Part shown: piece by piece, positions 8,997 through 63,064 of the stretch
How the letters are laid out: each line of letters opens with the position of its first letter
How positions within the stretch are numbered: the first letter of the stretch is position 1
Virus record (IMG/VR): IMGVR_UViG_3300035232_000745
Strand: one strand, 5' to 3'
Source of the DNA: a virus
DNA: 64,000 nucleotides
Translations under genes and position numbers: made by a program
The notes under the pieces: model-generated
Told to the model about the DNA's origin: nothing
Seen by the model: the letters and a program-made list of their open reading frames with translations, nothing else
Databases searched by the model: none

Positions 8997-10211
8997 TCAA
9001 CCGAAAAAGCTTTCGAGGTTATTTTCAGTTACATTCCATTGTTCTGTTGTTTCATCTATATTCGTTTGAAACAAAAAGTCTGTATCTGACCAAGGTCTAT
9101 TTCCTTCGAATACGTGTTTAATCTCAGTAGCCATATCCTTTGCTGTTTCGTAAGGAACGTTTTGGCAGATGTGATTGATAGAATTCTTTGGATCTAACAA
9201 CTCAAAGTCTTGAGGCAAACCCATAATAGTCATTGCTTCTCGAATAGTTATATATCTATCTTCGTATGGATGAGTTAACATTTTTGGGTAATGACCAACG
9301 AAAGCTCCAATATAATCTTTAGGAACCATTGTTCCTCTTCTCATAAGATTGCCTCCAGCCTGAAGCTTTTCATATTTACGTTCACATTTTGGAACTTCTC
9401 TATGATATCCGTTATCACCCATCCATTTAGCTATTCTTTTATAGTCATGACCTGCACGTTCAATCGCGCATTCAGCGTCATTTGCCCTTACGTTTTTTGT
9501 TACCATTATATCATGATATTCTCTATGAGTAATCCCACCATGAACTTCTTCTAAAAGGTAACGATAGTAAGGATCATCCTTAGAAGGAATTTTCTTATTG
9601 ATCACATCCATTTGAGTATTTGATGTTACACCGTTAATAATATCTTCTATTTTCTTGTGAGGTTTATTATAAAAGTGCAGAACAGGAGTTTTTTCACCGA
9701 ACATGTCTTTCTTCCAAAAGAAATAAAATGTACGCTTTCTGAACTGAGGAACACCATGTTTAATATTTTTAGTAAGATATAAAGACATCGAATAACCATT
9801 ATCTAATCCGATTTGTCTAAGCTTATTAAGCATAAACTCGCCTATCTTTCCAGATAGTGATGCAGCGTTCTCTCCCCAAAATACGTTTGGCTTTACGTTA
9901 GAAAGAATATACTCTGCGCTTAGCTCCATCCATTGGTTATTCTCGTTTGTTTCGCCGTGAGCATGATGCATAGTACTTAAACCTGCACACGGACAAACAC
10001 TTGATACAACATCTATTTTCTGGTTTAAGTCAGGAGATTGGCCCTTATCGAGAATATAATAAGGAACTTTATTTTCCCAATAATTCAAAAGATGTTGTTC
10101 ATTATCTTTAAATGCTTCATACGATAAAATATACTCTGGCTTTGAACCAAATACTTCTGTAGATGCAAGAGCTTCACCACCTATTAAGGGTATAATAGTG
10201 GCGTGCTTCAC
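8997..10211 (-). CDS. DNA cytosine-C5 methyltransferase homologue
   Basis: Motif IV PCAGLS, motif VI GENA, motif VIII GVPQFRKR, motif IX RYITIREA..IMGLPQDF; motif I (IPLIGG) and motif X (QNVP) are non-canonical. Confidence 0.75.
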   Translation of the reverse strand: MKHATIIPLIGGEALASTEVFGSKPEYILSYEAFKDNEQHLLNYWENKVPYYILDKGQSPDLNQKIDVVSSVCPCAGLSTMHHAHGETNENNQWMELSAEYILSNVKPNVFWGENAASLSGKIGEFMLNKLRQIGLDNGYSMSLYLTKNIKHGVPQFRKRTFYFFWKKDMFGEKTPVLHFYNKPHKKIEDIINGVTSNTQMDVINKKIPSKDDPYYRYLLEEVHGGITHREYHDIMVTKNVRANDAECAIERAGHDYKRIAKWMGDNGYHREVPKCERKYEKLQAGGNLMRRGTMVPKDYIGAFVGHYPKMLTHPYEDRYITIREAMTIMGLPQDFELLDPKNSINHICQNVPYETAKDMATEIKHVFEGNRPWSDTDFLFQTNIDETTEQWNVTENNLESFFG

Positions 10212-11323: not shown

Positions 11324-11959
11324 CTAAACAGTTTTTCTAAATTCTTCGTATTCATTTTCTAGAGTAACCCATTGCATTTTAGTAAGGCCCGACCAAGAAT
11401 GTCTTCTATCCCATACTATCCACATATAAGCAATCATACCACCTATCTGATCTTCTTTTTCGATAGGTTCTATATGATCTGAACTGAATTTAACTCTATC
11501 AGATAAAAAGATTATATCACTAGGAGGATTATTTGTAAACAATTTCTTTCTCTTCTTACCCTCTAAAAATGTAATACGTAAAAACATTGCAGTATAGTCA
11601 TATTCAGATATGAATTTCTCTGCTAGTTTTCTTGGTAAATCTTTGTGATAAGGAGGATTTGTCACAACACCATCTGCAAATTGCGGTTGCAGTTCCATTG
11701 CATCATAAGGTGTGTGGACTTCAGTCAAGCAATTATCATAAGAGTTTAAATCATAACTAGTTACGCTGTGACCCATTCTTTGAAGTTGCTTAGATATATT
11801 ACCACGGCCAGCACAAGGCTCAACAATATTTTTTGGCGGTTTACAATACTTTCCTAGAACGAATGTTGCCAAAGGAGGTGTTGGATAAAAATCATTCTGT
11901 CTTCTATTAGCATCGTCCTTTTTTACTCCGGTGTAAATATCAGTTAAATTAGTTGCCAT
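11324..11959 (-). CDS. amino-(N6A/N4C) DNA methyltransferase
   Basis: DFYPTP, EPCAGRG (SAM), VTNPPY catalytic motif. Confidence 0.85.
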   Translation of the reverse strand: MATNLTDIYTGVKKDDANRRQNDFYPTPPLATFVLGKYCKPPKNIVEPCAGRGNISKQLQRMGHSVTSYDLNSYDNCLTEVHTPYDAMELQPQFADGVVTNPPYHKDLPRKLAEKFISEYDYTAMFLRITFLEGKKRKKLFTNNPPSDIIFLSDRVKFSSDHIEPIEKEDQIGGMIAYMWIVWDRRHSWSGLTKMQWVTLENEYEEFRKTV

Positions 11960-11964
11960 CGATA

Positions 11965-12486
11965 CTACATTCTAATTTCAATAATGTCATTCCAAAACTC
12001 TTTCTTCTTTTTTCCGTGTATTATCAAATGCAATCTTTCTTCGTCAGATTTATTTTCGACCCAATGAGAATAGTGTACATTCAAAACAAATGCTGCACCT
12101 TTATGGTATGGTACTTCTTCTCCATTCAGAATGAACTTACTTCCATTAGGATATGAAATTGACATATTAAGAGTATCTAGCCAATTGTGTTCTGGAACAT
12201 CGCTGTGTTCAGCAATATATCCCTCAGGTTTTATAACTAAAAATCTAACGTCATCTAGTCTATCATATGGTAATGATTTGATGAACTCTACGGTCTTAGT
12301 ACATTTTAATCCTACCTCTGTAATATTGTCTTTAATGAATAAAGATGCTGCAAACCAGTCCTTATGACCATCTTGCGGTCTATTGATAACTAATTCTTCT
12401 TTGACTGATAGGTATTCTTGTTCTATATCGTAACAAGGAATATCGAAATTCATCTTTACCCATTGAGCATCGCTATTTCGGTGCAT
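11965..12486 (-). CDS. 2OG-Fe(II) oxygenase, aspartyl/asparaginyl beta-hydroxylase-like
   Basis: IAEHSD...H.VEN....R.H cupin motif. Confidence 0.7.
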   Translation of the reverse strand: MHRNSDAQWVKMNFDIPCYDIEQEYLSVKEELVINRPQDGHKDWFAASLFIKDNITEVGLKCTKTVEFIKSLPYDRLDDVRFLVIKPEGYIAEHSDVPEHNWLDTLNMSISYPNGSKFILNGEEVPYHKGAAFVLNVHYSHWVENKSDEERLHLIIHGKKKKEFWNDIIEIRM

Positions 12487-13031
12487 TAAACCAATTCTTC
12501 TTCTTTCAAGCCATAGATATCTACACCAGCTTCCATTAGCATCGGCCTAGATTGTTTATTCCACATATCAGTCCATGTTTCGGGGGTAGAGTCTGTAGGT
12601 AACATTATCCAGAGAGATTTTACACCAGCTTGAATAACACATTTAGTACAGTCTGAACAGACCGGTAATCCATAAACATAAAGAGTTGCTCCTTTTAATG
12701 ATACGCCATTATATAAAGCATTCATCAAAGCATTCATTTCTGCATGAACAATACGAGGATATTTCTCAGCTCTGTTATTTAATCTATCATCAGTATCAGC
12801 AATACCCTTTGGAAACCCGTTATATCCTGTCGCTAGAATATTTCTTTCATCGTTTACTGCTACAGCACCGATTTTACTAGAAGGGTCCTTACTCCACGTA
12901 GAAACCATTTTGGCCATATTCATGAAACGAATTGGCCATTTAGTTGTACTAGGATCTAAGAAACTATCTACGGGGTATTGTTTGTACATTCTTTTCATAT
13001 ATTGATCGTATGGTTCGTAATCATCAATCAT
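12486..13031 (-). CDS. cd: dCMP deaminase
   Basis: TGYNG, HAEMNA, PVCSDC Zn motif. Confidence 0.92.
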   Translation of the reverse strand: MIDDYEPYDQYMKRMYKQYPVDSFLDPSTTKWPIRFMNMAKMVSTWSKDPSSKIGAVAVNDERNILATGYNGFPKGIADTDDRLNNRAEKYPRIVHAEMNALMNALYNGVSLKGATLYVYGLPVCSDCTKCVIQAGVKSLWIMLPTDSTPETWTDMWNKQSRPMLMEAGVDIYGLKEEELV

Positions 13032-13244: not shown

Positions 13245-13922
13245 TTACTCCACTAAATTAAAGTGACGCTCGTACACGTGCAAGTTCATTACTTGCCAAG
13301 TAAGATCACCTTTTGTAAGGTTATGTCCTTCTTCATTTAGATTATCAATAGCTCTATCCATAAGGTGTTGAGCCCACGCATAATCATTCTTGTAACCAAA
13401 GACTACATCGTTTGAACGCATTTGTGATACCATATGCAACTTATTATCGCGAATATAGAACGTTTGCGCATTAGTACAAATGAAATCTGATTTACCATTC
13501 TCGTTGTATTCAACCCAAATAGATGGACGATTATAAACCATCTGAGCACGACGGCTATCTGGATTAGCAATCAACTCTTCAATTGCACTATAATATTGAT
13601 TATAAAACTTTGGAGAGTCTACAAGATGTCCGTAGTTTGAATTGATTTCACCGTTTTCATTAGCAGCATATTGCCAAGCAGCAGGCGGATCTTTATCTAA
13701 ACCATGAATATCCATAATATTAGTAGAACCGCTTTCATACCAAGCTAGCTCTGCATCAATATAAGATTTAACAGGTGTGCCAAAGATAGCTGGTTCATCA
13801 GCAATAAATGATGCACCTAACATTTCAATTGTTTTAGCACCGGTTTTGTCGATGGTAAAATTCTTATCGCTTAGTTCGTTAAAGAAGTATTCACGAATAT
13901 TACTTACATTATTTTGTTTCAT
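13245..13922 (-). CDS. gp42: dCMP hydroxymethylase (T4 gp42-like, thymidylate synthase fold)
   Basis: Close match, from memory, to T4 gp42: DKTG.KTIE..GASF.ADEP.IFG, GEINSNYG, NPDSRR, SDF.CTN, MRSNDVVFG..NDYAW, LHVY.RHF; the cytosine-specifying Asp (NDYAW) is kept. Confidence 0.9.
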   Translation of the reverse strand: MKQNNVSNIREYFFNELSDKNFTIDKTGAKTIEMLGASFIADEPAIFGTPVKSYIDAELAWYESGSTNIMDIHGLDKDPPAAWQYAANENGEINSNYGHLVDSPKFYNQYYSAIEELIANPDSRRAQMVYNRPSIWVEYNENGKSDFICTNAQTFYIRDNKLHMVSQMRSNDVVFGYKNDYAWAQHLMDRAIDNLNEEGHNLTKGDLTWQVMNLHVYERHFNLVE

Positions 13923-14217
13923 ATCTATCATCCATATCTTTGCCTTCATCATAAGCTACGCGAAGGATCATTAGCTGAGTTAATGCATGGTCTAAATGAA
14001 GAAGACCAGATTCTGGATCAATATCTTCTTTATCCCAATAGGCCATGAGGTGACGCTGAAGAGAAGAATAAGATCTGCCCCATTCAGTAGTATTAATATC
14101 ATCACGCCAATTGTTTTCAGAATATTTGGCTGCACCAAAAGCAAATACCTTAGCTGCAGCTTCAATAGCTACTGTAGGTACAAGATGAATTGGTGGTTTG
14201 TTATTGTCGTATTTCAT
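13909..14217 (-). CDS. dNTP diphosphohydrolase (DUF5664/dGTP_diPhyd-like)
   Basis: KYD..K, FGAAKY...NW, RHL..Y...EDIDPESGL.HL.HA. Confidence 0.8.
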   Translation of the reverse strand: MKYDNNKPPIHLVPTVAIEAAAKVFAFGAAKYSENNWRDDINTTEWGRSYSSLQRHLMAYWDKEDIDPESGLLHLDHALTQLMILRVAYDEGKDMDDRYETK

Positions 14218-14279: not shown

Positions 14280-14369
14280 CTAAGTTTTTTCTTTTTGTGC
14301 TTTTAATGCTGCAAGAATATAACGTCTATGCTGTCTATATTCTAATACTATTTGTGCAAATGTTTTCAT
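14280..14369 (-). CDS. 29-aa microprotein
   Basis: MKTFAQIVLEYRQHRRYILAALKAQKEKT; ATGA overlap with upstream stop. Confidence 0.4.
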   Translation of the reverse strand: MKTFAQIVLEYRQHRRYILAALKAQKEKT

Positions 14370-15442
14370 GCTAGAAACTCCATTACTGAGTGTGAACTAC
14401 TTACTTTCTTTTCTAATGCAGCAGGCCTCCATATATCTGGATACATTGGCTTGTCGTCTTTATCCATCATATAATATCCAGAAGCATTTCTTAAGCCTCT
14501 GCCTGAGCGATCAAGATTATTTAAAAACCTTACGTAAATACATAAAGTATCTTCATGCGCAACAGCACTTGTACCAAGCTTTTCTGTAAGATCTGCAAGT
14601 GCTAAATCGTGATATTCTACTTGACTCATTCCTTTAGGTTTATGAAACATTTGTTCAATTGCTTGTCTTGCGTTATTACCACAATATAAACTAGAATTTG
14701 GATCAACGTATTCTGGGTGGTATGTAGCAATATCAGCAATCATTTGAGCATAAGGAAAGTTCCAACGACGAATACCTCTATCTATATTCTTCTGATTAAG
14801 TCTATCAGTTAATTCTTTCTGATCTAAAGGAGCACCATTATTCATAGCTAAATTTTCTTTTAGCCATTCAGTTAATTGTTTCATAAGATCTAAACCGAAG
14901 CTCGTAATGTGTTCTGGTAAATTCATTCCTTTTATCGGAGTTGGGTTTTGGTTACCAATAGTAGAAAACATTTTTCTATCAGCAGCTTTCCAAACCTTCA
15001 TTAGATCTGCCATTTCATCTGCAGTTTCTAATAAACCAAAATGAGATACAATAGAATGATGATATCCATGCCAATCCTTGCCGGCATAAAAACCAGAGCC
15101 AGTACTACGATGAACATAATAGGCGTAAACATATTCGAGTAAAGACCATTTGTCTGTTACATAATTTTTAACACGTTCTTGTACATCTACTGGTCTTTTC
15201 TTAAATACTATTTGGTTTGTTCCATAATTTATATCTTGATTAACATTATTAAAGCCTTCGTATGTACGAGACACACAATTATAAGCTGGAATATTTTGCA
15301 TTAATGGATCATTGATATTTTTATCGGCCTCGGGCCCAAGATAATCGAGATCACCGATTAAACAATTTTCTTCTAACCATTTAGATTTAGGCCAGAAGTA
15401 ATCTACGTAACAATCATAATTTGGTCTTGTTTCAAGTTGCAC
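14366..15442 (-). CDS. aGPT-Pplase1 / amino-acid:DNA transferase-like protein (HhH-glycosylase fold)
   Basis: NDPLM...N.VSR, F.YAQMIADI, LYCGNNA..AI and HEDTLC.Y.RF align with clade-1 motifs DPIL..N..R, F.A.Q...DL, GPGA..G and E..LCE..KY. Confidence 0.55.
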   Translation of the reverse strand: MQLETRPNYDCYVDYFWPKSKWLEENCLIGDLDYLGPEADKNINDPLMQNIPAYNCVSRTYEGFNNVNQDINYGTNQIVFKKRPVDVQERVKNYVTDKWSLLEYVYAYYVHRSTGSGFYAGKDWHGYHHSIVSHFGLLETADEMADLMKVWKAADRKMFSTIGNQNPTPIKGMNLPEHITSFGLDLMKQLTEWLKENLAMNNGAPLDQKELTDRLNQKNIDRGIRRWNFPYAQMIADIATYHPEYVDPNSSLYCGNNARQAIEQMFHKPKGMSQVEYHDLALADLTEKLGTSAVAHEDTLCIYVRFLNNLDRSGRGLRNASGYYMMDKDDKPMYPDIWRPAALEKKVSSSHSVMEFLA

Positions 15443-17785: not shown

Positions 17786-18196
17786 CTATACTGCCTTATT
17801 TAAATCTCCGTGATTACCATCGTGATTAGGTGCTTCCCAACCTTCAGGCTTAATAAGATCTGGTAATCCGAAAGGGTTCGGCCTACCTTCTTTAACACCG
17901 ACATCTTTCGATACATTAGCTTTGTATACACGATCCCATGCTTCGTTTGCATCTACGCCGAATACATCTAATGTACCAATAGCAAATACACACATATCAA
18001 TTAAGCCGTCTACGATTTCTTCTGGATCTTTTGCTTCAACTGCATCGAGTGTTTCATCAAGTTCTTCTTTACACATAGACAAACGAAACTTAAGGTACTT
18101 ATCCATCAAGTCTTTATTATCTTTGTTTTCATCAAACCATTTGCGTACACCAAACCGGTTATGCATCATATAGATGTCGTTTACCCAATCGCTCAT
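17786..18196 (-). CDS. MazG-like / PRA-PH nucleoside triphosphate pyrophosphohydrolase
   Basis: EELDE...EIVDGLID, V.KAN.SK, DLIKPEGW..P. Confidence 0.8.
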   Translation of the reverse strand: MSDWVNDIYMMHNRFGVRKWFDENKDNKDLMDKYLKFRLSMCKEELDETLDAVEAKDPEEIVDGLIDMCVFAIGTLDVFGVDANEAWDRVYKANVSKDVGVKEGRPNPFGLPDLIKPEGWEAPNHDGNHGDLNKAV

Positions 18197-49469: not shown

Positions 49470-49658
49470 ATGAACATGGCAATTAAAGTAAGCACTACAG
49501 TTGTGATTACCAACGCTTTAGAACTGCAAAACATTGCAACGGTTGATGGTACAACAGAATCAACAATCCAAGCAGCAGTTAGAGCAAACGACCACAAATT
49601 AATCATACGGGATTCAGCAGGAACAGAAACCTTTAGGCTTCACGGCGTTACAGCGTAA
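49470..49658 (+). CDS. small late (virion-like) protein
   Basis: MAIKV..T.VI N-terminus of the kind seen in fibre proteins; late promoter. Confidence 0.5.
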   Translation: MNMAIKVSTTVVITNALELQNIATVDGTTESTIQAAVRANDHKLIIRDSAGTETFRLHGVTA

Positions 49659-50653
49659 TGGCAGGCTGGTTACTACAAGGCAACTTAACTGGAAGTGGCG
49701 TTTCTCTAGATATGCCAAACCCAGCGCTTGATCCATATGAAAATCAAGTCTTGAGAAGAATCGCTTATCTGTATTCACTTAATACTACTGTCGAGTTAAG
49801 CGTAGTTGCTTCTGGTGGAAACTTGGGTACTATTTCAGAAATTAGACAACAAGCCGGTGCAAGTACATCACAAACTTCTGCTCAAGGCGGTTTTGCTTCT
49901 GCTGCGAATACACCAAATATTTCTAGCATAAGTACAAACTATGCTCGCATTAGTCAAACAGTAAGCAGTTCACCGCCTGCATTACCTACTGATACTGACC
50001 TCCACAGATTTCCGCTTAAAATGAATGCTACTTCTGGAGACCTTCAATCTATGAATTTTCAAGACTGCATGGATTATTTTATTGAACCAGCAATTGCATA
50101 TATAACAAGCGGATCACCTACTGTTCAAGCAGGTGGAGCTTATCATATATCCACATCAAGCAGTGTCTCTGGCTCTACTTTAGTATCAGCAACTCCGGTG
50201 TTTATCGATACAAGAGCAGATGCTGCTGCTTACACTGCAGGCGGAATTGGAGAAACTCAAGACCAACCTACAACTATTAATAGCTATTACTTACATAAAG
50301 TTACACCAGCGTCTAATACTCCTGACTTTATGCCAGTATATTGGGATTATACAAATGGCGATATAAGAGAAATGTCTTTATCTATGTTTGATGATATATT
50401 TGGACCAATGATACAAAACTATGTAGTTAACGGAAGTGGCGAAGTAGGACAAAATCTAAAAATAAGATATAATATCAATGGCTCTGGCACTACAATGGGT
50501 ACTGTTATGGCAGACACATATTTAAGTGGATCGTCAGCTTCTGGATATACACAAAGATTTGTAAGTGCATCAGATTATCGAACGCAAGAATTTCCAAATG
50601 GTACACCAGCAACAAACGCATCTCACACATTGAAGAGTTTATTATCTAACTAA
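49658..50653 (+). CDS. putative virion structural protein
   Basis: S/T/G-rich; late operon; YRTQEFPNG. Confidence 0.55.
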   Translation: MAGWLLQGNLTGSGVSLDMPNPALDPYENQVLRRIAYLYSLNTTVELSVVASGGNLGTISEIRQQAGASTSQTSAQGGFASAANTPNISSISTNYARISQTVSSSPPALPTDTDLHRFPLKMNATSGDLQSMNFQDCMDYFIEPAIAYITSGSPTVQAGGAYHISTSSSVSGSTLVSATPVFIDTRADAAAYTAGGIGETQDQPTTINSYYLHKVTPASNTPDFMPVYWDYTNGDIREMSLSMFDDIFGPMIQNYVVNGSGEVGQNLKIRYNINGSGTTMGTVMADTYLSGSSASGYTQRFVSASDYRTQEFPNGTPATNASHTLKSLLSN

Positions 50654-50663
50654 GGAATATATT

Positions 50664-51221
50664 ATGGCAGAATTTAGTGGCAACGTCAACGCGGCGTATT
50701 ATATGAATGAAGAATGCAGTTTAATTGAAATTGTATATACGTCTTACGACAGTGATCCAGACGGTGAAAAACTTAAATACATGGTTGAAGTAGATGATAA
50801 TGATGCAAACTATAAAGCTTTGATTGCAGAAGGTTATGATGCAGAAAAGCTTGCTGAGCAAACTTCTGAATATAAAAGAGCTCATAGTAGGCAGTTTAAT
50901 CATCTAGTTAATACTCTTGCAGAAGAACTTGCAGAAGAACTTTCTGGCTCGCCTTTATTGGAACGAAAGAAAATAGAACTAGAAAAACAAATCGAAGAAC
51001 TGAACGAGAAGAAAAAGCTTAAAGTCTATAGCATGGATAATGAAATGTTTGATTTTATTGATACAAATGAAGACTCTTCCAGCCTATTTAAATTTAAACT
51101 TTGGGCTTTAGATAATGAAAAGTACAAAGGCATGACAAAAGAAAACAAAAAGCAAATAAGAAAAGCTAAATCCCTCGTAGAGGGATTTTCAATATTACAT
51201 TCAGTATCAATATCTGAATAA
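50664..51221 (+). CDS. hypothetical protein
   Basis: ORF with RBS. Confidence 0.6.
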   Translation: MAEFSGNVNAAYYMNEECSLIEIVYTSYDSDPDGEKLKYMVEVDDNDANYKALIAEGYDAEKLAEQTSEYKRAHSRQFNHLVNTLAEELAEELSGSPLLERKKIELEKQIEELNEKKKLKVYSMDNEMFDFIDTNEDSSSLFKFKLWALDNEKYKGMTKENKKQIRKAKSLVEGFSILHSVSISE

Positions 51222-52276
51222 TGTTATGGAACCCAAGCGATATCAAGGTATTTCTTGATATCAGCACTTTTTGTAATGCAGGCTGTCCTCAATGTCATAG
51301 AACCAATTCTAACGGTTTAGGTAAAGTCGATTGGCTTCCTTTAGTACAATGGGATCTTGCAACATTTCAAAAAGCGTTTTCACCAGAAGATTTAAAGTAT
51401 ATTAATACATTTAAGTTTTGCGGAACTTTTGGTGATCCTGTTATGTGCAAAGAACTTGATAAGATATTCAAATACATTATAGATAATTCCGAAACAACAA
51501 TATCAGTAGACACTAATGGCAGTATTCGAAATGAAGATTGGTGGTGGAATGTAGGAGTAATGTGCAGTAATAGACTTGAAGTTGTTTTTGCTGTTGACGG
51601 CATAGACCAAGAAATGCATAGCAAGTATCGCAGATTTACAGATCTAGAAAAAGTTCTATCTAACATGGAAACTTTATCTATGACTAATGCTATAGTACAT
51701 TCTCAATCTGTTTTGTTTAAACACAATCAAGAATACAAGGATGAATTAACTGCTTTAGTTAAAAAGAACGGATCTGTCAGACATACGTTTGTAATATCTG
51801 ACAGATTTGATAGAGTTGACAACGGAAAAGACGTGTTTATTGATGAGAATGGTAAAGAAGATTATTTCGAAAGAGCTGATCATGAAATTTTACCAAAAGG
51901 TTATGTTGCAGGAACAAAAAACAATATTCTTAGCAATGAAATAATTTGTCGTTGGGCAAAACCTCGTAATGAAATAGTCGTAAATCCAGACGGTCAAATA
52001 ATGCCATGCTGTTACCATGCTAATGCGCATTATATGCATCGACAAGGAATAACAAATGAAATGAATAAACACGACGTATATTCTAAGGGTTATAACAAAG
52101 ATTTAAAAAAGTATAACTTGTTTCATTCAAATCTAACTGATATACTTAATAGCGAATGGTTTACAAAAACTTTACCGCAAAGTATTAATAGCGATAAACC
52201 AATAAAACAATGTGAAAAACAATGCAGTTCTAGAACAAAAAAACTTCATCAAATAAGAGAATATCATGACACCTGA
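51221..52276 (+). CDS. radical SAM protein with SPASM/twitch domain
   Basis: CNAGCPQC, TNG, C..DGQIMPCC...C...C. Confidence 0.9.
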   Translation: MLWNPSDIKVFLDISTFCNAGCPQCHRTNSNGLGKVDWLPLVQWDLATFQKAFSPEDLKYINTFKFCGTFGDPVMCKELDKIFKYIIDNSETTISVDTNGSIRNEDWWWNVGVMCSNRLEVVFAVDGIDQEMHSKYRRFTDLEKVLSNMETLSMTNAIVHSQSVLFKHNQEYKDELTALVKKNGSVRHTFVISDRFDRVDNGKDVFIDENGKEDYFERADHEILPKGYVAGTKNNILSNEIICRWAKPRNEIVVNPDGQIMPCCYHANAHYMHRQGITNEMNKHDVYSKGYNKDLKKYNLFHSNLTDILNSEWFTKTLPQSINSDKPIKQCEKQCSSRTKKLHQIREYHDT

Positions 52277-52877
52277 AAATATTATTTTTGTAAAACACGG
52301 CGATAAGTATAACGCCGAACATGTGAATAGATTAAGAGATCAATTAATGGTATACTTTCCATCTTCGCAATATCTCTGTTATACAGAAGATCATTTAGGA
52401 GTTGAAATAGAATGCATTCCGTGTTTTAAAAAACCACAATTAAGATTTTGGTGGAATAAACTCGCTATGTTTAGTTCAGACTTTCCTGTCAGAGGTAAAT
52501 GTTTATTCTTCGATTTAGATATGGATATTAAAGAAGATCCAACTTCCTATTTAAAATGGGATGGATTAACTGTACTTAATTCGTATTGGAAACAAGATAT
52601 GTATATGGCAAAACACGCTTACGACGTGACAATAAATAGTTCAATAATCACATGGACTGCTGGCGAACAAACCCATATATGGGATCACTTGTTAACTAAT
52701 AAAGATTATTATACTCGTAAATATAAAGGTATTGATAGATTTTTAATTCATGAAGGTTTTGATATAAACAGATTTGATGATGGAATTGTAAACAGTGTAG
52801 CAAATCCTTATGAAGGTACTGCACCGATTAATATGTATAATGGAATAAATTATGAACTACAAAGAACTGCTTTATAA
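52266..52877 (+). CDS. glycosyltransferase-like protein (GT-A)
   Basis: KHGDKY, WWNKL..F, FDLD, NSS. Confidence 0.65.
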   Translation: MTPENIIFVKHGDKYNAEHVNRLRDQLMVYFPSSQYLCYTEDHLGVEIECIPCFKKPQLRFWWNKLAMFSSDFPVRGKCLFFDLDMDIKEDPTSYLKWDGLTVLNSYWKQDMYMAKHAYDVTINSSIITWTAGEQTHIWDHLLTNKDYYTRKYKGIDRFLIHEGFDINRFDDGIVNSVANPYEGTAPINMYNGINYELQRTAL

Positions 52878-53490
52878 AAACGCTTTAAAAGAAATTGAAG
52901 AAATCTATACTCAATCAAAGTATGATCCTGATGTAGATTTGTATAGAAGTTTCGATATTATAAACTCAGTAAATGAAAACCAATTTAAAAGTAAAGAATG
53001 GCTTATTAAAGAAGTATTACCTTATTTAAGCGGCGTTAAACATATTTGTATAATGGGTTCGTGGTACGGTCTAATAAGTTTACTTATTAGAAGATACGTG
53101 TCAGATAACGTAGTAATTCATAATATAGATACAGATCCTTTATCTAAAAAATTTGCTTTAAGTTTAACCGATGGTATAAGGCATAAGAATACGCACTTTG
53201 TTGTGGAAGATGCTGCAGATTTTGCGATTTCTAATATCGAATGGTTTGATCTAATTATAAACACAAGTACAGAACATATGGAACAGGAAGATATAAAGAT
53301 GATGACTATGCTTAAAAAGAAAAAGGCGATCGTTTGTTTTCAGGGTAATAATTATAACGAAATACAATCGCACATTAATACTCACGATACGTTGGAAGAG
53401 TTTCTTGAATCGTTAGAGTTAAATAAAGTGTTTTTTAAGGAGTCACTTGCTACTGAAAGATATAATAGATATATGGTAATAGGCCGATGA
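52852..53490 (+). CDS. SAM-dependent methyltransferase-like protein
   Basis: MGSWYG, D.D, INTS.EH, RYMVIG. Confidence 0.65.
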   Translation: MNYKELLYKNALKEIEEIYTQSKYDPDVDLYRSFDIINSVNENQFKSKEWLIKEVLPYLSGVKHICIMGSWYGLISLLIRRYVSDNVVIHNIDTDPLSKKFALSLTDGIRHKNTHFVVEDAADFAISNIEWFDLIINTSTEHMEQEDIKMMTMLKKKKAIVCFQGNNYNEIQSHINTHDTLEEFLESLELNKVFFKESLATERYNRYMVIGR

Positions 53491-55229
53491 AAAGACTTAT
53501 TTTTACAATACACGACGATATTGATAATACCAACGCATCTTCCAATAATAAAGAATTAATGGGCTTTGATCAGTTCGAAGTAATAAAGACTAGCCATTCA
53601 GATAACGCTAAAAGGGCTTTATTAAAAAAATACTTTAATGATCTTATCGACAATAAGAGAGAATACGCAGATAAAATCGGCGTAGATTTTAAATTTTTTC
53701 ATAATGAAATGAAAGATTTTGATGTAGATACTTCACTCGAATTCACTAAAGTTAATCTATACAAACATCATTTATACGCAAAGATGGCTGAAGAGTATGA
53801 CGAAGTTTTATATGTTGATACAGACGTGTTGTTTAATACTGATGAAAATATTTTTGACGCACACGATTTAAGCAAAGGTATTCATGTTAAAGACCAAGAT
53901 GAAAAGATAATTTCAAGAGAAAAGTCTGAGGTATTATTAAGTTTTGTTGGATTAAGAAGTCCTATTTTAAAGTACTTTATTACTAAAGATTTATTAGACG
54001 GTAAAGAATGTCATGTAATTAATACGGGTATTATGTTAGGCAGATCTGAAGATATTTTAAATATTAAATTTATTGAGAGAATGAAAGAAGCAATTGAAAA
54101 GATAAATGTTCTTAAGACAAAAAAGAATCTTATCAATGCACTTTATTATCCAAATAACGAGTCTATATTCTCTTACATACTTGAAAAATACAATGTACCG
54201 TATGCTATATTAGAAGATGAGTGGCATAACATTTATGACGGATTTGGTGCAGATCCTATCAAAGGAAAGTGTGTACACATTATTCATAAACAGTTTGACC
54301 ACTTTTTTAATAAAAGAACAAAGGCTATATTCTCTTTACATATTGACATACACGAAGATAATCTAGATCATCCAAAGAGTTATAGTGATACAGAAGAAAA
54401 CAAAAGCGCATCAACCAAACGTTTATTAAATCAATATAGAGATAAACTACTTGATAACCACAAAGACTATGCCGACAAAATTGGTGTAGAGTATATTCAT
54501 TATTCAAGAGACGACAATTATGAAGAGTTTAAAAGTAGATTTCCAGACTTATCAGAATACGATGTAGTTAATCTATATAAAGTTTGGTTGCTAGATAAAC
54601 TTACAAAAGATTACGACACAGTAATGTATGTAGATTTTGATACTACATTTATTAATTACGACTCGCCATTTAATACTATGCCAGCAGACTTTGCTTTTTG
54701 TTGTATTATGGATGATAAGAAGCTATTACATATTGATGAAACAAATGATTACTTGAATAATTATAAAAAAGACTTTAGAAACCCTGAAGCTAAATACTGG
54801 AATGCTCATGCTCTTTTACAAGAGGATGATGAACCAGGAGACAATATAGTATTCAATACCGGAGTTATGCTTGCTTCTAAAGAAGTAATGAAAAAGATCG
54901 ATTATTTTTCTGATATTGATAGCGTAATAGAAACTATGAAAGAGCTAAAAGAAGACGAGTTCAGTATGTATCCTCAAAACATAAGGGCTTCGTTTGGATA
55001 TGACAATGAAACTATTATGTCTTATAAGACTAGAATTAACGACGTACCGTTATTTTATCTTGGGTATAAATGGCACACAAGACATTTCTATGGAAATAAG
55101 CATGAGTTTATTGAAGGTACACCAGAAAGAAAAAGAGCTTTGCTAAAATTAAAAGGCTCTATAAAGGAAGAAAACACTACTATAATTCATTTCATATCTA
55201 AGAATTTTGGTTTATATTTCGATGAATGA
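53487..55229 (+). CDS. tandem two-domain glycosyltransferase (GT8/GT34-like)
   Basis: Internal duplication of YADKIGV, VNLYK, YVD.D, NTG.ML and NE. Confidence 0.7.
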   Translation: MKRLIFTIHDDIDNTNASSNNKELMGFDQFEVIKTSHSDNAKRALLKKYFNDLIDNKREYADKIGVDFKFFHNEMKDFDVDTSLEFTKVNLYKHHLYAKMAEEYDEVLYVDTDVLFNTDENIFDAHDLSKGIHVKDQDEKIISREKSEVLLSFVGLRSPILKYFITKDLLDGKECHVINTGIMLGRSEDILNIKFIERMKEAIEKINVLKTKKNLINALYYPNNESIFSYILEKYNVPYAILEDEWHNIYDGFGADPIKGKCVHIIHKQFDHFFNKRTKAIFSLHIDIHEDNLDHPKSYSDTEENKSASTKRLLNQYRDKLLDNHKDYADKIGVEYIHYSRDDNYEEFKSRFPDLSEYDVVNLYKVWLLDKLTKDYDTVMYVDFDTTFINYDSPFNTMPADFAFCCIMDDKKLLHIDETNDYLNNYKKDFRNPEAKYWNAHALLQEDDEPGDNIVFNTGVMLASKEVMKKIDYFSDIDSVIETMKELKEDEFSMYPQNIRASFGYDNETIMSYKTRINDVPLFYLGYKWHTRHFYGNKHEFIEGTPERKRALLKLKGSIKEENTTIIHFISKNFGLYFDE

Positions 55230-55842
55230 AAGAAATAAAAGAGGAATAGTAATAGATGCTTCACATAAATGCATGCTTAAATGTCATAAATGTGAAAGAG
55301 CTTGGTACGTAAAGAATAGACAAAAAGTTCCAGGTAACGATTTAACGGTAGATCAGTTCAAAAAAATAGCTAGGTATTATACAAACTTTATAGAATTTTG
55401 CGGACAAAGAGGTGACGTAGTAATGAATCCAGATTTGGCAAAGTTTTTAGAAATTACTTATGAAGCAGGTATCGATACAAAAGTAAATACTGCTGCTGGT
55501 TATAGAGATATGAATTGGTATATAGAATGTTTTAAAGCAAATCCAAATTGCGATTGGACATTTGGAATAGATGGATTACCAGAGCAAAGTCATATATATC
55601 GCAAAAATCAAGATGGAGTAAAGCTATTTAATATTATGGTTGAAGCAACAAAGCATTTAAACAAAAAACCTGTTTGGCAATATATAGCTTTTAATTATAA
55701 CGAAGATAATATAGAATTAGCAAAAGAAATGGCACGAGATAATAATATTATATTTGAACTTAATGTTTCTGCCAGATTCGATGGACCAAACGATCCTTAT
55801 ATACCGGAAGGAAAAAATCTTGCAACGTCCTTTATATCCTAA
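55222..55842 (+). CDS. radical SAM protein (core only)
   Basis: CMLKCHKC, FCG..GD, FGIDG; paralogue of 51221. Confidence 0.85.
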   Translation: MNERNKRGIVIDASHKCMLKCHKCERAWYVKNRQKVPGNDLTVDQFKKIARYYTNFIEFCGQRGDVVMNPDLAKFLEITYEAGIDTKVNTAAGYRDMNWYIECFKANPNCDWTFGIDGLPEQSHIYRKNQDGVKLFNIMVEATKHLNKKPVWQYIAFNYNEDNIELAKEMARDNNIIFELNVSARFDGPNDPYIPEGKNLATSFIS

Positions 55843-56134
55843 ATGTATGAACGGTACAAGAACCAGAGCATTGACTGCAGACGGATATATAGTACCGTGT
55901 TGCTGGACAGATAGCTACAAAAGTAGACAGCATAAAATATACAAACAATTATTTGATCCGGCATTGCATATAAATAACTTTGAAAATGTAGAGGATATTG
56001 AAGACTCTATCATTTGGAATAAAATTGAAGTGATGATAGATTATGGGCACGAAGACTTAGATATATGCCACAGAATGTGTGGTAGACCTAACGAAAAAGA
56101 TACTCCCTTCAGACAAAAAATACGCTCGGAATGA
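55820..56134 (+). CDS. stand-alone SPASM/twitch domain
   Basis: PKC...ADGYIVPCCW...C...C; TTG start after GGAAGGA, in the +1 frame. Confidence 0.65.
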   Translation: MQRPLYPKCMNGTRTRALTADGYIVPCCWTDSYKSRQHKIYKQLFDPALHINNFENVEDIEDSIIWNKIEVMIDYGHEDLDICHRMCGRPNEKDTPFRQKIRSE

Positions 56135-56216
56135 ATTTATTGACATTTCGTGATTAACAATGTACTATAACATTATCTCTATGAGATAAACACATCATAA
56201 AAGGAGAAACAATATT

Positions 56217-56987
56217 ATGATTAAGAACTTTATTATTGCCGCAGCTTTTGTTGCGACTTCAGCATCAGCAGAAACAACAGTTGTAAATACTGGATCAGAC
56301 TCAGGCGGCTTTAATGCGGTTATGAGTATGGTTGCAGAACAGATTGGAACAAACGTTGTACAAGCTGGAAACCCGGTTATCGCTGCTTCTTATTTCGATA
56401 ACGGTGATGTTGTGACTATGTGGTCTACTGAATGGCCTGCAGATGATAGTCTACCAAAACCTGCTATTGATGGTGATACTATCGTAGCATTGCAAACCTA
56501 CGAAACAATTTTATGTTCTCGTGAATATACATCGCTTTCTTCAATGGCTGGCGAAACTGTAAAGATTGCTACATGGGGAGAATCTCCTGCAGTAAATAAA
56601 TTCTTAGATGAATTGGGCGCTGATAACCAAGTAACTTTTGAGGTAGTACCTTACGAAGGTTCTGGCGGAACAACGCGCGGTTATTTGGGTGGAGATGCTG
56701 ATACAATCTTTACTATTCAAACACGCCAATCAAAAGTAGAAGCAGACGGAACGTGTTTTGCATTTAGTGCAGATGGTGGTTTAGATTTCGCTTTTGTTGA
56801 TATGATTTTGGCAGTGAATGCATCTGGTGATACAGTTACTGAACTACGAAATGCAGTTACTGAGTTAGCAGCTACAGAAGCATGGCAGACTTCTTTTGAA
56901 GGTACAGTTACTTACGTTGTAGATGATTCTAACAAAGAAGCAATCGTAGCTAAAACAAATGCAGCAATTTTGTTGAACACTAACTAA
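56217..56987 (+). CDS. TctC/Bug-like periplasmic solute-binding protein
   Basis: Signal peptide; SGG; VPYEGSG....YLGGDAD resembles Bug VPYKG.G.....LGG..D. Confidence 0.65.
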   Translation: MIKNFIIAAAFVATSASAETTVVNTGSDSGGFNAVMSMVAEQIGTNVVQAGNPVIAASYFDNGDVVTMWSTEWPADDSLPKPAIDGDTIVALQTYETILCSREYTSLSSMAGETVKIATWGESPAVNKFLDELGADNQVTFEVVPYEGSGGTTRGYLGGDADTIFTIQTRQSKVEADGTCFAFSADGGLDFAFVDMILAVNASGDTVTELRNAVTELAATEAWQTSFEGTVTYVVDDSNKEAIVAKTNAAILLNTN

Positions 56988-58144
56988 TAGTATTCGATAG
57001 AATTTTGTAGTTCTTCTTTAACGGCCTGATATGTTTTTTGCATATCAGGCTTTTTTGTGCCTAGTACAATTATGCTCATATTAAAAATGCTGTCTGATGC
57101 GTTAGTTTGTTCTGCGATTACTTTACCTTCATGTAACTCATGAGAAGTTTCACTAATATATTCTTTTAGGTGCGAATAATCTTTAACCCTTTTGATTGTG
57201 CCGGGTTTTAAATCAGCCTGTCTCCAAATAAAGTGTTTATTATATTGTATTTTCTTATTCGATATAATGTCAGGTATGACAGTAAACCCCATTGCTTTAT
57301 CCATAAGAGTATTACCAGTACCAATTCTGGGATTGCAATCTATCATTTTAGTTATGCCGTCATAAACATAAAAGTCAGGACCAGAAATAAACATATTTCT
57401 AACTCCCAACACGTCTGCTATACTCTCGTAAAATATTTCAGATGATTCTTTTACGATATCTGGTACTTCATCCTCATCAATACTTTGAATAACGTAAGGA
57501 TGATTGTAATATTTTGAGTTGCCGTAACGAATAAGCTTTGTATCAAGTTTTACACAAAATTGTCTATGCACGTTTCCATCCATATCGATATAAGCATAAT
57601 AGCCATAAACTTCAGAATACGTAGGTAACATTTCTTGAACCATATAATAACTTTGTACGTTATTAAATTTAGGGTCAGTAAATCCTTTCTTATTTGTTTC
57701 AAAGAAATTATCTGGTATATTGTTTAGTAATTCTTCTTTACTGTGATATGAAGTATAAGAAAATCCATCTAATTTAGTACCAGAACCCACAGTAGGTTTA
57801 ACTATAAGATCTCCATCGAACAAATCTTCTTCGCACGTTGGTATCACGCTTTTAGGTATCATATCTCCTAATCCTATAGCTATACAAAAATCGTCAAACT
57901 TCTTTTTGTCAGTCAGCACTTCAGCAGCTGAAACAGAAAGGTTTTTTAAACCTAACTTAATTTCTAACTGCGCTTGAACTGGTAATAGACTTTCTGATAA
58001 AGTCCATATCCTATCATAAGAGCCTTCTATTGTATCAAAGTTATCAGTTTTTATATCTACAGTTTGGCCTAAACTTTCAATAGCTTTCTTCATGCAACCT
58101 ATTCTATGATGAGCTCTGGCGTATGATAATATAAGATTTTTCAT
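56984..58144 (-). CDS. ATP-grasp ligase
   Basis: DK..F, IVKP..GSG, VQE.L, PDF....IDCNPR.G. Confidence 0.75.
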   Translation of the reverse strand: MKNLILSYARAHHRIGCMKKAIESLGQTVDIKTDNFDTIEGSYDRIWTLSESLLPVQAQLEIKLGLKNLSVSAAEVLTDKKKFDDFCIAIGLGDMIPKSVIPTCEEDLFDGDLIVKPTVGSGTKLDGFSYTSYHSKEELLNNIPDNFFETNKKGFTDPKFNNVQSYYMVQEMLPTYSEVYGYYAYIDMDGNVHRQFCVKLDTKLIRYGNSKYYNHPYVIQSIDEDEVPDIVKESSEIFYESIADVLGVRNMFISGPDFYVYDGITKMIDCNPRIGTGNTLMDKAMGFTVIPDIISNKKIQYNKHFIWRQADLKPGTIKRVKDYSHLKEYISETSHELHEGKVIAEQTNASDSIFNMSIIVLGTKKPDMQKTYQAVKEELQNSIEYY

Positions 58145-59400
58145 GAGTATATCGCGATCACTCTCATTAAGTTATTCCAAAATAGATCTGTTAAAAAGAA
58201 ACCGTATAATATAGGAAATGTATCCCACTTTCTTATAAAATAACCCAAAACAGATAGTGCTAGTAATGATATTAATAACCATTCTTTTACAGGATATATA
58301 TGTAAACTCATTATAGAAATGAATACAACTATTAACGTCGTAATTATATGTTTGTGTTGTTTTATATATTTGGCTATAATACCTAACTGATTAAAACAAA
58401 CCCAAGATAGAAATAAACATATGACAAGAATAAGAGGAATATAATAAAGTATATCCTTAAATATGTGTAACGTTTCAATATCAAATGTAAATCCTCTCGA
58501 TAATACCAAATAATATATCAAGACTTCACTACTCACAATAGGAATTCCTAATATTATTAATGGCAGTAACGAGCTTAATGCTCCACTATTATTCGCAGAT
58601 TCAGCCGCAGCAATCTTGTTGATATCTGTCTTAACTACGTTAGCGCTTAAATAACCACCTAATATGTTTGTTACTCCTGGAATTAATCCTGCCCAAAAAC
58701 CAATGAATGCTCCTATTATAGTAGAAGGCACGGTTTTAATATCATAACCAAACTTAGATATTTTATTATTATCTTTAAATTCTTTATCTTTAAATTTCAG
58801 TATTTCTGGTATGATATACAAACCAATCATTACAGAACTAAAGGGTATTCCCAAAGTTAAGTAATCAATACCAAAAGTTCCCCATGTTTCATAAGATATA
58901 TTATCAAAACCTATCTTTGCGAGCACACCACCAAATACGAAAAGAATAATAGATTTCCATTTAGCCTGCTCTGATAGAAATATTAAAAGAATGATTGCTA
59001 TTGATATGACTACTACTTGTATTGTGCTATTATAGAATTTAAATAAGCCAAATAAGTTTGATGCAAAGGCCAAAAATAAACCTACAGCAAAGATAGATCC
59101 TATTGTGCTTGAGACAGCATTAGAGCTTACTGCGTAATGACCCTTTCCTTCTAGGAACAGTTTATGCCCGTATCTTGCAGTTGTAACCGCAGCAGCGTCT
59201 CCTGGTATCCCGTATAGTATGCCAGTTACAGAATTGGTATAATTTGATGTGATGATTAACGCTACATAAAAGATTAGAATATTAAACGGATCTAAAAACG
59301 CTAATAGAGGATAGAAAGTTGCGACAGCGAGAAATGCTCCTGCTCCTGGAATAATTCCAAATATCACACCAGCAAATATGCCGAGTAAACACCAAATCAT
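58141..59400 (-). CDS. TctA-family tripartite tricarboxylate transporter permease
   Basis: GIIPG.G, IL.GIPG..A..T...G..L...G, G.IPG, AESANN, LPL..LGIP. Confidence 0.8.
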   Translation of the reverse strand: MIWCLLGIFAGVIFGIIPGAGAFLAVATFYPLLAFLDPFNILIFYVALIITSNYTNSVTGILYGIPGDAAAVTTARYGHKLFLEGKGHYAVSSNAVSSTIGSIFAVGLFLAFASNLFGLFKFYNSTIQVVVISIAIILLIFLSEQAKWKSIILFVFGGVLAKIGFDNISYETWGTFGIDYLTLGIPFSSVMIGLYIIPEILKFKDKEFKDNNKISKFGYDIKTVPSTIIGAFIGFWAGLIPGVTNILGGYLSANVVKTDINKIAAAESANNSGALSSLLPLIILGIPIVSSEVLIYYLVLSRGFTFDIETLHIFKDILYYIPLILVICLFLSWVCFNQLGIIAKYIKQHKHIITTLIVVFISIMSLHIYPVKEWLLISLLALSVLGYFIRKWDTFPILYGFFLTDLFWNNLMRVIAIYS

Positions 59401-60044
59401 TAGCTACATATACCGTTATCTAACATATAATGAAATAAATCTTTATCCCAATGCAAGCATATTACTATTATAATCATATCATCTTTAGTTGAAAATACGC
59501 AATGCCTTTTGTTTCCATTGAAATACCATAGTGATCCGTTATTGCATTTAACAATCTTATCATCGTATAACCATTTAAAATGATATTCGTTTACGTTCAC
59601 AAAAGCTGTCAATCTTATTTCATCATAAGAAGAATCGTGTTTGTTGATATCGAAATGATCTGGAAAGAAACCTCCTCTATCCATTCTTAAAAAGTGGCAG
59701 CGCGTTATCCAACGTTCCCACGGCAATAATAATCTAGAAAGTTCTTCGCTTTGTGTCCACACTTTTGTTGGAACTACAATGTCTTGATTGTTTACTACGA
59801 TTCCAGTTTCTTGTTCGTAGTTTTTTAAACTAGTTAAGTCAGGAATTCCGCTTAATCCGCCGTCGATTGATGTAACACTGAGGCCCCATCTATTGTTCGG
59901 TTTATTGGGATTATATCGTTTCCAATCGTCTTTGAAAGGTTCTATTTCTTTCATAACTTTACGAGCATCAAAACCTTGGAATTCTTGCCAATCAGACATC
60001 ATGCCTAATCGCGTTAATGCTTGAGCGTCTTCGTCCCACTTCAT
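59400..60044 (-). CDS. 2OG-Fe(II)/cupin hydroxylase-like protein
   Basis: GGFFPDHFD...FN..KRH; late promoter at 60076-60083. Confidence 0.55.
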   Translation of the reverse strand: MKWDEDAQALTRLGMMSDWQEFQGFDARKVMKEIEPFKDDWKRYNPNKPNNRWGLSVTSIDGGLSGIPDLTSLKNYEQETGIVVNNQDIVVPTKVWTQSEELSRLLLPWERWITRCHFLRMDRGGFFPDHFDINKHDSSYDEIRLTAFVNVNEYHFKWLYDDKIVKCNNGSLWYFNGNKRHCVFSTKDDMIIIVICLHWDKDLFHYMLDNGICS

Positions 60045-60089
60045 AATAATAACCTCATATTTAATAGTATAGAAGTATTTATAATACGG

Positions 60090-60117
60090 TTGACATTTTT
60101 CTAAGTCACGGTATAAT
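60090..60117 (+). promoter_or_regulatory. consensus sigma70 promoter
   Basis: TTGACA-N16-TATAAT upstream of the 60209 gene. Confidence 0.7.
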
Positions 60118-60208
60118 AGTCTTATAGCTAAACAATAAATAGCTTCGTTATCAATAATGGTAACTTTTGTGAGCGACGGGGTAAAGCCGTCAAACAAAGG
60201 AGAAATAT

Positions 60209-61174
60209 ATGGAACTACTCACAGTGTGGAGCCTTGTCGGCTTCCTGCTAGCTGCTTATGCGGTAATAGCGAATGATTCAGTACAGACTCTCGGTACATG
60301 GATGGCATCAAACAATGAGAGATTTAGTTATAAAACATTATGGGCTGCAGCATCTGCCGTCTTATTAGCTACACTATGGTATGGTTGGAGCGTCAATGGT
60401 GGCGATATTAGTTATGGTCGTTTAAATAAGATTCCATGGCAAGAAGTACAATGGTATCATGCCGCGGCACCAGCAATATTAGTTGCATTAACTCGTATTG
60501 GTGTACCAGTATCAACATCATTTTTAGTTTTATCTGTATTCGCTTCAACGTTCGTGTTGGAAAAAATGCTAATGAAATCTATTATGGGTTATGGTGTAGC
60601 GGCTGCGTTTGCTTATCTTGTATGGTTTGCAATTCATAAGTATTTCGGTAGATGGTATGATGAAACTCAGCCAGTAAGCGAAAGTAATAAGAACTATTGG
60701 CGTGTTGCTCAATGGGTTGCTACAGGTGGTTTATGGTACACATGGCTATCACATGATATTGCTAACATAGCAGTATTTTTACCACGTCAAGTACCGGTAG
60801 ACTTAATGATACTTATATCATTTGTATTTGTCGGTGGATTGTTCTTTATGTTTAGAGAACGGGGTGGTAAGATCCAGCAAATCGTATTAGAGAAACATAA
60901 CACTCGATACGTACGATCGGCCACATTGATTGATTTATTCTATTGGTTGTGTCTATACTTCTTTAAAGAACTAAATGATATTCCTATGAGTACAACATGG
61001 GTTTTCGTTGGTTTACTTGCAGGTCGAGAACTTGCAATGGCTACATACTTTGGTAAAAAGAAAACAAAATCAGTATTTCCATTAGTTGCTAAAGACTTTG
61101 GAAAAATGATGGTTGGTCTTGGTGCTTCAGTAGCATTAGTATTACTTATTCATACTGTGATTAATCCAGTGTAA
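60209..61174 (+). CDS. multi-pass membrane transporter, PiT (inorganic phosphate)-like
   Basis: ANDS.QT and HDIAN repeats; PVSTS and PMSTT repeats typical of the PiT inverted-repeat fold. Confidence 0.6.
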   Translation: MELLTVWSLVGFLLAAYAVIANDSVQTLGTWMASNNERFSYKTLWAAASAVLLATLWYGWSVNGGDISYGRLNKIPWQEVQWYHAAAPAILVALTRIGVPVSTSFLVLSVFASTFVLEKMLMKSIMGYGVAAAFAYLVWFAIHKYFGRWYDETQPVSESNKNYWRVAQWVATGGLWYTWLSHDIANIAVFLPRQVPVDLMILISFVFVGGLFFMFRERGGKIQQIVLEKHNTRYVRSATLIDLFYWLCLYFFKELNDIPMSTTWVFVGLLAGRELAMATYFGKKKTKSVFPLVAKDFGKMMVGLGASVALVLLIHTVINPV

Positions 61175-61247
61175 TATTTTTATCACATATTACTTTTAAT
61201 GGGCCTCTTGTATTTACATTTGGCCCATTTTACATTATATATACTTA

Positions 61248-61500
61248 GTGAACGTTGAAGTGACGTGAATACGGATCGGACCGCGGGGCAGTACCGCGCA
61301 TCTCCACCACAAGCGCATTATGTGTGTTTTTGATGGGGATGAACTAGGATCGACGGACGGGATAGCTAAGTGGAGTTCATCGGGTGATCGCGTATAGATC
61401 AATTAAACTAAATGCAAATGAAAATTTCGCACCATCTGGTTATGCTCTAGCAGCATAAACACAGGGGGTTGGCAACTTACCTAGCAACAGAAAAGTTCGC
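61248..61500 (+). ncRNA. ssrA: two-piece (circularly permuted) tmRNA, alphaproteobacterial type; tag ANENFAPSGYALAA
   Basis: 3' acceptor half CGCGG-GGCAGTA-CCGCG-CATCTCC-A-CCA (ends 61309) precedes the 5' half GGGGATG...GGATCGAC (starts 61335); G3.U70 pair; tag ORF 61414-61458. Outer ends are approximate. Confidence 0.92.
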
Positions 61501-61535
61501 ATACATACAAACTATTAGAAAAGGAAAGAAGTAGT

Positions 61536-62336: not shown

Positions 62337-62381
62337 ACTTACTCTACACAGTAAATTGCATTAACTTACTCTACACAGTAA
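62336..62381 (+). repeat. two 19-nt direct repeats AACTTACTCTACACAGTAA, each a hairpin
   Basis: Copies at 62336-62354 and 62363-62381. Confidence 0.8.
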
Positions 62382-62390
62382 GTTACATTT

Positions 62391-62414
62391 AAGGGAGCTT
62401 CGGCTCCCTTTTTT
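62391..62414 (+). terminator. rho-independent terminator (UUCG tetraloop)
   Basis: AAGGGAGC-TTCG-GCTCCCTT-TTTT. Confidence 0.92.
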
Positions 62415-62459
62415 GTTGTTATAAATAATATTACATCATTATAGAGAGGCGTTTACATT

Positions 62460-63002: not shown

Positions 63003-63064
63003 ACGTTTACATATACGTAAAAATATGGTATTATAAATTAATAATCTATACAAGGAGGAATACA

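Follow-up and report, generated by a model that had tools for sequence, protein, structure and literature searches.

The cytosine-C5 methyltransferases (C5-MTases) M.HaeIII, M.HhaI and Dcm, together with the catalytic domain of DNMT1, share a single fold and a common motif order, in which motif X reads G-N-A-V-P. Canonical C5-MTases given hmC are known to release its hydroxymethyl group as formaldehyde (PMC11347137), and phages have put the same fold to uses of their own. CmoX of Synechococcus phage S-B43 (PDB 8YF3) is a DNA cytosine C5-carboxymethyltransferase with an SPPC motif, a carboxyl-binding Arg and a partner gene, cmoA (PMC12783734), while the TET-associated phage C5-MTs (Burke 2021, PMC8256090) methylate with SAM, feed TET, and are encoded in cytosine hypermodification clusters that include glycosyltransferases. 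At the level of nucleotide synthesis, an Asp at the position of E. coli N177 marks those enzymes of the thymidylate synthase (TS) fold that modify dCMP (PMC8670742). Here we describe a family, named PLIGG/QNVP after its motifs, that makes up a conserved and seemingly uncharacterised branch of the C5-MTase fold. Our literature search, of incomplete coverage, returned no paper on it, and an earlier mention is possible.

The window, by which we mean the whole 64,000-nucleotide stretch from IMG/VR record IMGVR_UViG_3300035232_000745, covers part of the genome of a marine T4-like phage (gp43, gp44, gp45, gp46/47 and gp55). An identical gene is present on a 69.5-kb contig binned in a Rhodobacteraceae genome assembly. 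One Rhodobacteraceae assembly, FZLS01, holds three different phage contigs with family members (L332, L333, L335). Positions 49658-63957 of the window carry a gene set that looks host-like by sequence (radical SAM, glycosyltransferase-like, TRAP/tripartite transporter-like, porin-like and heme oxygenase-like). The gene under study, encoding 404 amino acids, closes a co-oriented run of a gp42-like gene, a dCMP deaminase, an adenine-MTase-like gene, a 2OG-Fe oxygenase and a 368-aa ORF, the stop of which overlaps its start by 4 nt. The genes of this neighbourhood are:

8997..10211, minus strand: C5-methyltransferase-fold gene of the PLIGG/QNVP family, GTG start, 404 aa
10208..11314, minus strand: SGNH-fold protein, 368 aa; S177, G222-N223 and H341 invariant; LESFF-like tail
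11324..12486, minus strand: N6-adenine-MTase-like and Asp/Asn beta-hydroxylase-like 2OG-Fe genes, variable and outside the conserved core
12486..13031, minus strand: dCMP deaminase-like gene, by sequence; conserved beside gp42 in the module
13245..13952, minus strand: gp42-like dCMP hydroxymethylase, with Asp at the N177 site and CT at the catalytic site
14366..15442, minus strand: 358-aa protein, possibly AADT-like, with a clamp-like tail; its family lies upstream of SGNH in related cassettes
17786..18196, minus strand: PRA-PH/MazG-type pyrophosphohydrolase (PF01503, E=1.4e-10), a candidate dCTPase

The earlier note had placed an hmC synthase next to the C5-MTase homologue; a gp42-like gene, 48% identical to T4 gp42, is indeed present, but it is located about 3 kb upstream with four genes between. 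The 358-aa protein has no Pfam match, and a profile comparison with the HMUDK_hel cluster gave no tie to AADT. In related loci, the region upstream of SGNH holds its homologues along with a paralogue and what may be a PLP-type enzyme.

The relationship of the 404-aa protein to canonical C5-MTases is clear from its structure. Its match to PF00145 (Pfam, E=4.5e-20) does not start until position 45 of the profile, leaving motifs I-II unaligned. The AF2 model (pLDDT 92) matches M.HaeIII and M.HhaI along its full length (Z 24.4, rmsd 3.3, 279 aligned), with model residues 1-368 superposing on M.HaeIII 1-324 (Z 24.4) and motifs I-X in order, despite an identity to canonical enzymes of 11-19%. We found 1954 homologues, and a profile search at E<=1e-30 gave 373 clusters when grouped at 50% identity. 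Two loci carry two family members each (L152:10001-12426, in tandem, and L244:1234-9996). Conservation was counted over 151 family sequences, nearly all of them representatives of 50% clusters:

10176..10193, minus strand: rebuilt motif I, IPLIGG, residues 7-12 (P8 140/141, L9 139/141, G11 141/141)
10098..10124, minus strand: rebuilt motif II region, S30-Y31-x-x-F34-x-x-N37-E38 (S30 126/144, F34 132/143, N37 135/144)
9987..9992, minus strand: motif IV, P74-C75, with the catalytic cysteine (C75 143/144)
9867..9872, minus strand: motif VI, E114-N115 (E114 149/149)
9732..9746, minus strand: motif VIII, Q156-x-R158-x-R160 (R160 150/150, R158 149/150)
9153..9164, minus strand: rebuilt motif X, QNVP, residues 350-353 (Q350 142/145, N351 138/145)

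The PC, EN and QxRxR motifs, which the earlier note had called intact, can thus be read directly, and motif IX is likewise shared with canonical enzymes. Its reading of motifs I and X as IPLIGG and QNVP also agrees with ours. The FxGxG of SAM-binding motif I is absent, Leu presumably replacing its Gly, in the register of the canonical motif, in 139/141 sequences, and motif X takes the family form [C/A/T]QNVP in place of GN[A/S]V, the 404-aa protein reading C-Q-N-V-P in register. Ser30 stands at what we take to be the site of the canonical ribose-binding Glu, and no conserved acid occurs at residues 30-32, where position 32 is variable; this register is taken from the M.HaeIII motifs. Other residues are newly conserved in the family (S30, F34, N37, N92 and N384, the last on an extra C-terminal strand that canonical enzymes lack), and G12 is likewise kept. 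The cofactor region does retain an aromatic at position 31 as well as D55 (104/144), and may for this reason still accommodate an adenosine ligand.

Where the SAM motifs had been described as degenerate, our counts point the other way: P8, L9, G11, Q350 and N351 are near-invariant alongside invariant catalytic residues, and by this pattern of conservation PLIGG and QNVP are motifs rebuilt under selection. Decay of a pseudogene is ruled out by the invariance of the replaced residues across 151 sequences. The motifs also bear out the view that this is no ordinary Dcm. By its SAM motifs the family lies outside the canonical methylases, yet it would work like them up to the C6 adduct, and we infer from the altered residues that the rebuilt pocket may act without SAM.

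Likeness to CmoX is nearly as strong in structure (Z 23.8 to the model, at 16-18% identity), and both are cases of a phage C5-MTase fold in a modification cluster, repurposed in CmoX for another group transfer. However, the family has [C/P]PC, Q350-N351 and an Asp-type synthase as partner; the SPPC motif and carboxyl-binding Arg of CmoX are replaced in the 404-aa protein by VCPC and by Q350-N351 in motif X, and cmoA was not recognised among the recurring neighbour clusters, to which this comparison was confined. The parallel with the TET-associated enzymes is one of genomic setting, whereas here a gp42-type synthase would give hmC, in which C5 is already occupied. No TET/JBP gene occurs within five genes of the 404-aa gene, the nearby oxygenase being solely of the Asp_Arg_Hydrox type, which is not common to related loci.

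The first recurrent feature is the association of the family with synthases of the Asp (cytosine) type, to phages with which it is almost confined, in contrast to canonical C5-MTases. Among 330 loci, viral or binned, that contain a family member, the TS-fold genes within 10 kb comprise 191 with Asp, in 44 sequence clusters, and 0 with Asn at the N177 site, although such loci counts overstate independence, since many loci come from related T4-like phages. The link nevertheless spans T4-like, jumbo, TIM5-like and DnaE-type phages. Where a clade has no synthase close by, an Asp-type one was found elsewhere in 19/27 whole records, and in 4/4 of those that are near-complete (at least 90% complete). 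A preponderance of homologues in phages without gp42, which the earlier note had named as telling against its idea, is therefore not what we observe, with 191/191 nearby TS-fold genes being Asp-type. Among relatives collected on gp45, an independent anchor, the family gene and gp42 are either both present or, in a single lineage whose contigs run from gp43 to gp45 (L443, L445, L447; partial contigs), both missing from that interval. The dependence runs one way: of 966 cultured records with a gp42-like gene almost none has a family member, and about 960 of these, T2 and T6 among them, are without it. Besides the family member, 12/12 viral records hold no PF00145 gene, and the same goes for S-TIM5, G and XG4. 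The record behind L199 (L354) has a synthase match with 5 in-frame TGA codons, which suggests TGA reassignment in that phage.

Cultured members are gp080 of cyanophage S-TIM5, one in Pseudoalteromonas phage XG4, and Bacillus phage G gp301, and each of these phages possesses an Asp-type synthase and glycosyltransferase-like genes. The S-TIM5 and XG4 proteins have PL[IV]GG and QNVP like the 404-aa protein, at about 30% identity, whereas phage G gp301 is more distant (FIFGG, QGVP). Phage G carries its Asp-type gene as a second synthase, together with two alpha-GT-like genes; XG4 has gp42, gp56 and glycosyltransferase-like genes; S-TIM5 has ThyX for dTMP, an Asp-type ThyA and an alpha-GT-like gene. 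The S-TIM5 synthase, gp076 (L029:6766-7602), is annotated as a thymidylate synthase, yet given its Asp at the N177 site and the presence of ThyX in the genome it probably modifies dCMP. It differs from the gp42 type in being a long ThyA-like form that keeps PCH, and by sequence this TIM5-type synthase looks more like a dCMP methylase that may make 5mC.

The second recurrent feature is found at the C-terminus:

9003..9017, minus strand: C-terminal LESFF, a putative sliding-clamp-binding peptide resembling the LEDFF tail of the DNA polymerase of the same phage

The 404-aa protein ends LESFFG and the polymerase of the same phage LEDFFA; tails of this kind bind the gp45 clamp in T4-like phages. 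The pattern occurs in 94/103 close homologues against a background of 78/1574 (5% of other ORFs), and in 110/116 SGNH, 16/17 AADT-like and 13/13 TAGT proteins, but in only 1/56 gp42 proteins; the S-TIM5 clade is without it (0/7), a further difference from the 404-aa protein. Judged by this peptide, the enzyme probably rides the replication clamp and acts on newly made phage DNA, and the resemblance to the polymerase tail argues for nascent phage DNA, rather than host DNA, as the substrate.

The slot directly upstream of the family gene is variable, being occupied by an alpha-GT (PF11440), a TAGT (PF20691), another GT-B or an SGNH gene, the last accompanied by HMUDK_hel (AADT-like) genes and often by an inositol-phosphate synthase. 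Since the family gene co-occurs with every decoration type, its reaction would be independent of the final decoration. A further group of members appears eukaryote-like: these are proteins of 598-1465 aa carrying low-complexity tails, C2H2-like fingers or a CXXC domain, from marine metagenomes, encoded as single long ORFs on gene-poor contigs. They form one clade (support 1.0) nested among the phage sequences and keep all of the rebuilt motifs (P0281, P0298, P0316, P0334 and P0398-P0410; L117, L118, L456 and L459-L461).

Taken together, these features suggest a base-flipping cytosine-C5 enzyme with a cysteine nucleophile that would close a cytosine-modification cassette. gp42 would make hm-dCMP, which would be incorporated and then decorated by transferases, and the gp45 clamp would load the 404-aa enzyme along with these transferases onto newly replicated phage DNA. 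There, C75 would add to C6 of a flipped cytosine, and the rebuilt pocket, free of SAM, would most likely allow a reversible exchange of hmC for C and formaldehyde, by which the enzyme could strip the hydroxymethyl groups left bare by the transferase or, in reverse, fill gaps. hmC left bare is open to modification-dependent restriction. Our tentatively favoured reading, at somewhat under an even chance, is a reversible reaction that takes hydroxymethyl off undecorated cytosines or puts it on, without SAM; we prefer it because the family needs a 5-substituted-cytosine pathway, is indifferent to decoration, keeps the attack on C6 and has lost its SAM contacts, and because the reaction has a precedent in canonical enzymes (PMC11347137). 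In all of this we infer clamp binding, the loss of SAM use, the substrate, the reaction and its direction. Several points weigh against an eraser: the family gene is missing from those roughly 960 cultured gp42-like records, the TIM5-type synthase may yield 5mC, which this reaction cannot remove, and a clamp-bound eraser would compete with the transferases.

Several alternative hypotheses may explain the same pattern. The best of these, which we regard as doubtful but worth serious attention, is that the family consists of low-specificity C5 transferases with an unusual but functional pocket, dependent on SAM or a SAM analogue, that modify the cytosines escaping hmC substitution. For example, gp56, the T4-type dCTPase, is present in 0/10 near-complete carriers and was found only in XG4, and since most carriers are without it, plain methylation may find free C to act on. 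Simple replacement of gp56 by the family gene is not strict, XG4 carrying both. A PRA-PH/MazG-type gene occurs in 6/10 near-complete records and may supply the dCTPase activity, which would weaken this argument. The retention of G11-G12, Y31 and D55 is consistent with a methylase, as is the resemblance of the clamp tail and the CXXC fusion to maintenance writers; conversely, the replacement of the FxGxG Gly by Leu and of the ribose-binding acid by Ser, in the register given above, speaks against it. S-TIM5 has no other C5-MTase gene in its genome, and work by Sabehi in 2012 is reported to have found S-TIM5 DNA methylated at all cytosines following purines. This would favour a methylase, yet the result also fits erasure after pyrimidines, if it was bisulfite-based. 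Dinucleotide bias, taken as a trace of target context, gave no consistent signal, and the 44RR control was similar. CmoX offers a precedent for a phage C5-MTase that uses a SAM analogue (PMC12783734). However, a self-sufficient enzyme would be expected in phages without an Asp-type synthase too, and none was found among the near-complete records.

The earlier note had itself proposed an enzyme that activates or conjugates hmC together with the overlapping SGNH-like ORF: the C6 adduct would activate hmC, and a nucleophile (a thiol, amino acid or inositol) would be joined to the exocyclic carbon with the help of the SGNH and AADT-like proteins. The SGNH assignment agrees with the fold (Z 13, residues 163-351), although the DxxH acid of the catalytic triad is replaced by K-S-V-H at 338-341, so that a catalytic dyad or another acid is possible on this sequence. 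The wider link to hypermodification also stands, since all 8/8 members from SGNH cassettes fall in one clade (support 0.996) despite scattered gp45 genes, and an 889-aa protein (P0411) fuses an AADT-like (HMUDK_hel) domain to a family member. This fusion, on a contig of a DnaE-type phage (L458:4802-13686, ENA ERZ25072740), has for company an Asp-type synthase, an SGNH homologue (E=1e-69) and an inositol-1-phosphate synthase; the contig further holds an FkbM-type MTase and a small phosphatase-like gene. Additionally, we noticed nothing resembling an hmU kinase among the recurring clusters of the cassette, which is in line with conjugation. A cassette of inositol-1-phosphate synthase, small phosphatase-like, HMUDK_hel and SGNH genes can be seen upstream of the family gene in L002-L007 and L043-L057, and at L031:6408-10388. 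By its gene content, the inositol-synthase/HMUDK_hel/SGNH cassette may serve to modify hmC with inositol or a sugar.

As the general job of the family, SGNH-linked conjugation is nonetheless unlikely: SGNH is present in only 43/330 loci, most members lie beside glycosyltransferases that use the free hydroxyl and need no activated hmC, and Aeromonas phage 44RR, which has gp42 and gp56, encodes an SGNH homologue fused to an AADT-like domain without any PF00145 gene. An obligate partnership with SGNH is ruled out by these loci and by 44RR, the fusion in which argues that SGNH partners the AADT-like protein first; the SGNH gene is co-inherited with the family gene and not required. In 44RR this fusion adjoins a sodium:solute symporter. 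Cassette type changes 9 times on the family-gene tree, compared with 12 on the gp45 tree and 14 when shuffled, but linkage between neighbouring genes may by itself explain such co-inheritance.

Least probable, and in our view a poor prospect, are a covalent shield or sensor that would occupy hmC for a time before its decoration, and a weapon directed at the unmodified cytosine of the host, which it would trap or deaminate, phage DNA being immune: either would explain the dependence on Asp-type synthases and a cofactor-free pocket, and canonical enzymes do form covalent complexes with hmC DNA (PMC11347137), but a weapon sits poorly with a clamp-like tail that points to phage DNA, with the fusion to a DNA-modifying domain and with eukaryote-like members bearing chromatin-type tails.

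In its broadest form our still tentative proposal, that of a cofactor-free DNA (de)hydroxymethylase or hmC-conjugating enzyme, describes a clamp-loaded editor that would set which phage cytosines stay modified. It would have spread across unrelated phage lineages and entered a marine lineage of eukaryote-like character, in which zinc-finger and CXXC fusions could turn it into an enzyme that erases 5hmC directly. The cultured carriers S-TIM5, XG4 and phage G, together with T4gt DNA, make the question directly testable. If the family does act on hmC without SAM, what has been a test-tube side reaction of methyltransferases would become a natural step of DNA editing; this would explain a context-specific modification pattern in a phage with a pre-replicative pathway, and would offer epigenetics a direct 5hmC eraser or labelling enzyme. 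Even as a methylase, the family would represent a new SAM-pocket architecture in thousands of proteins currently annotated as ordinary methylases.
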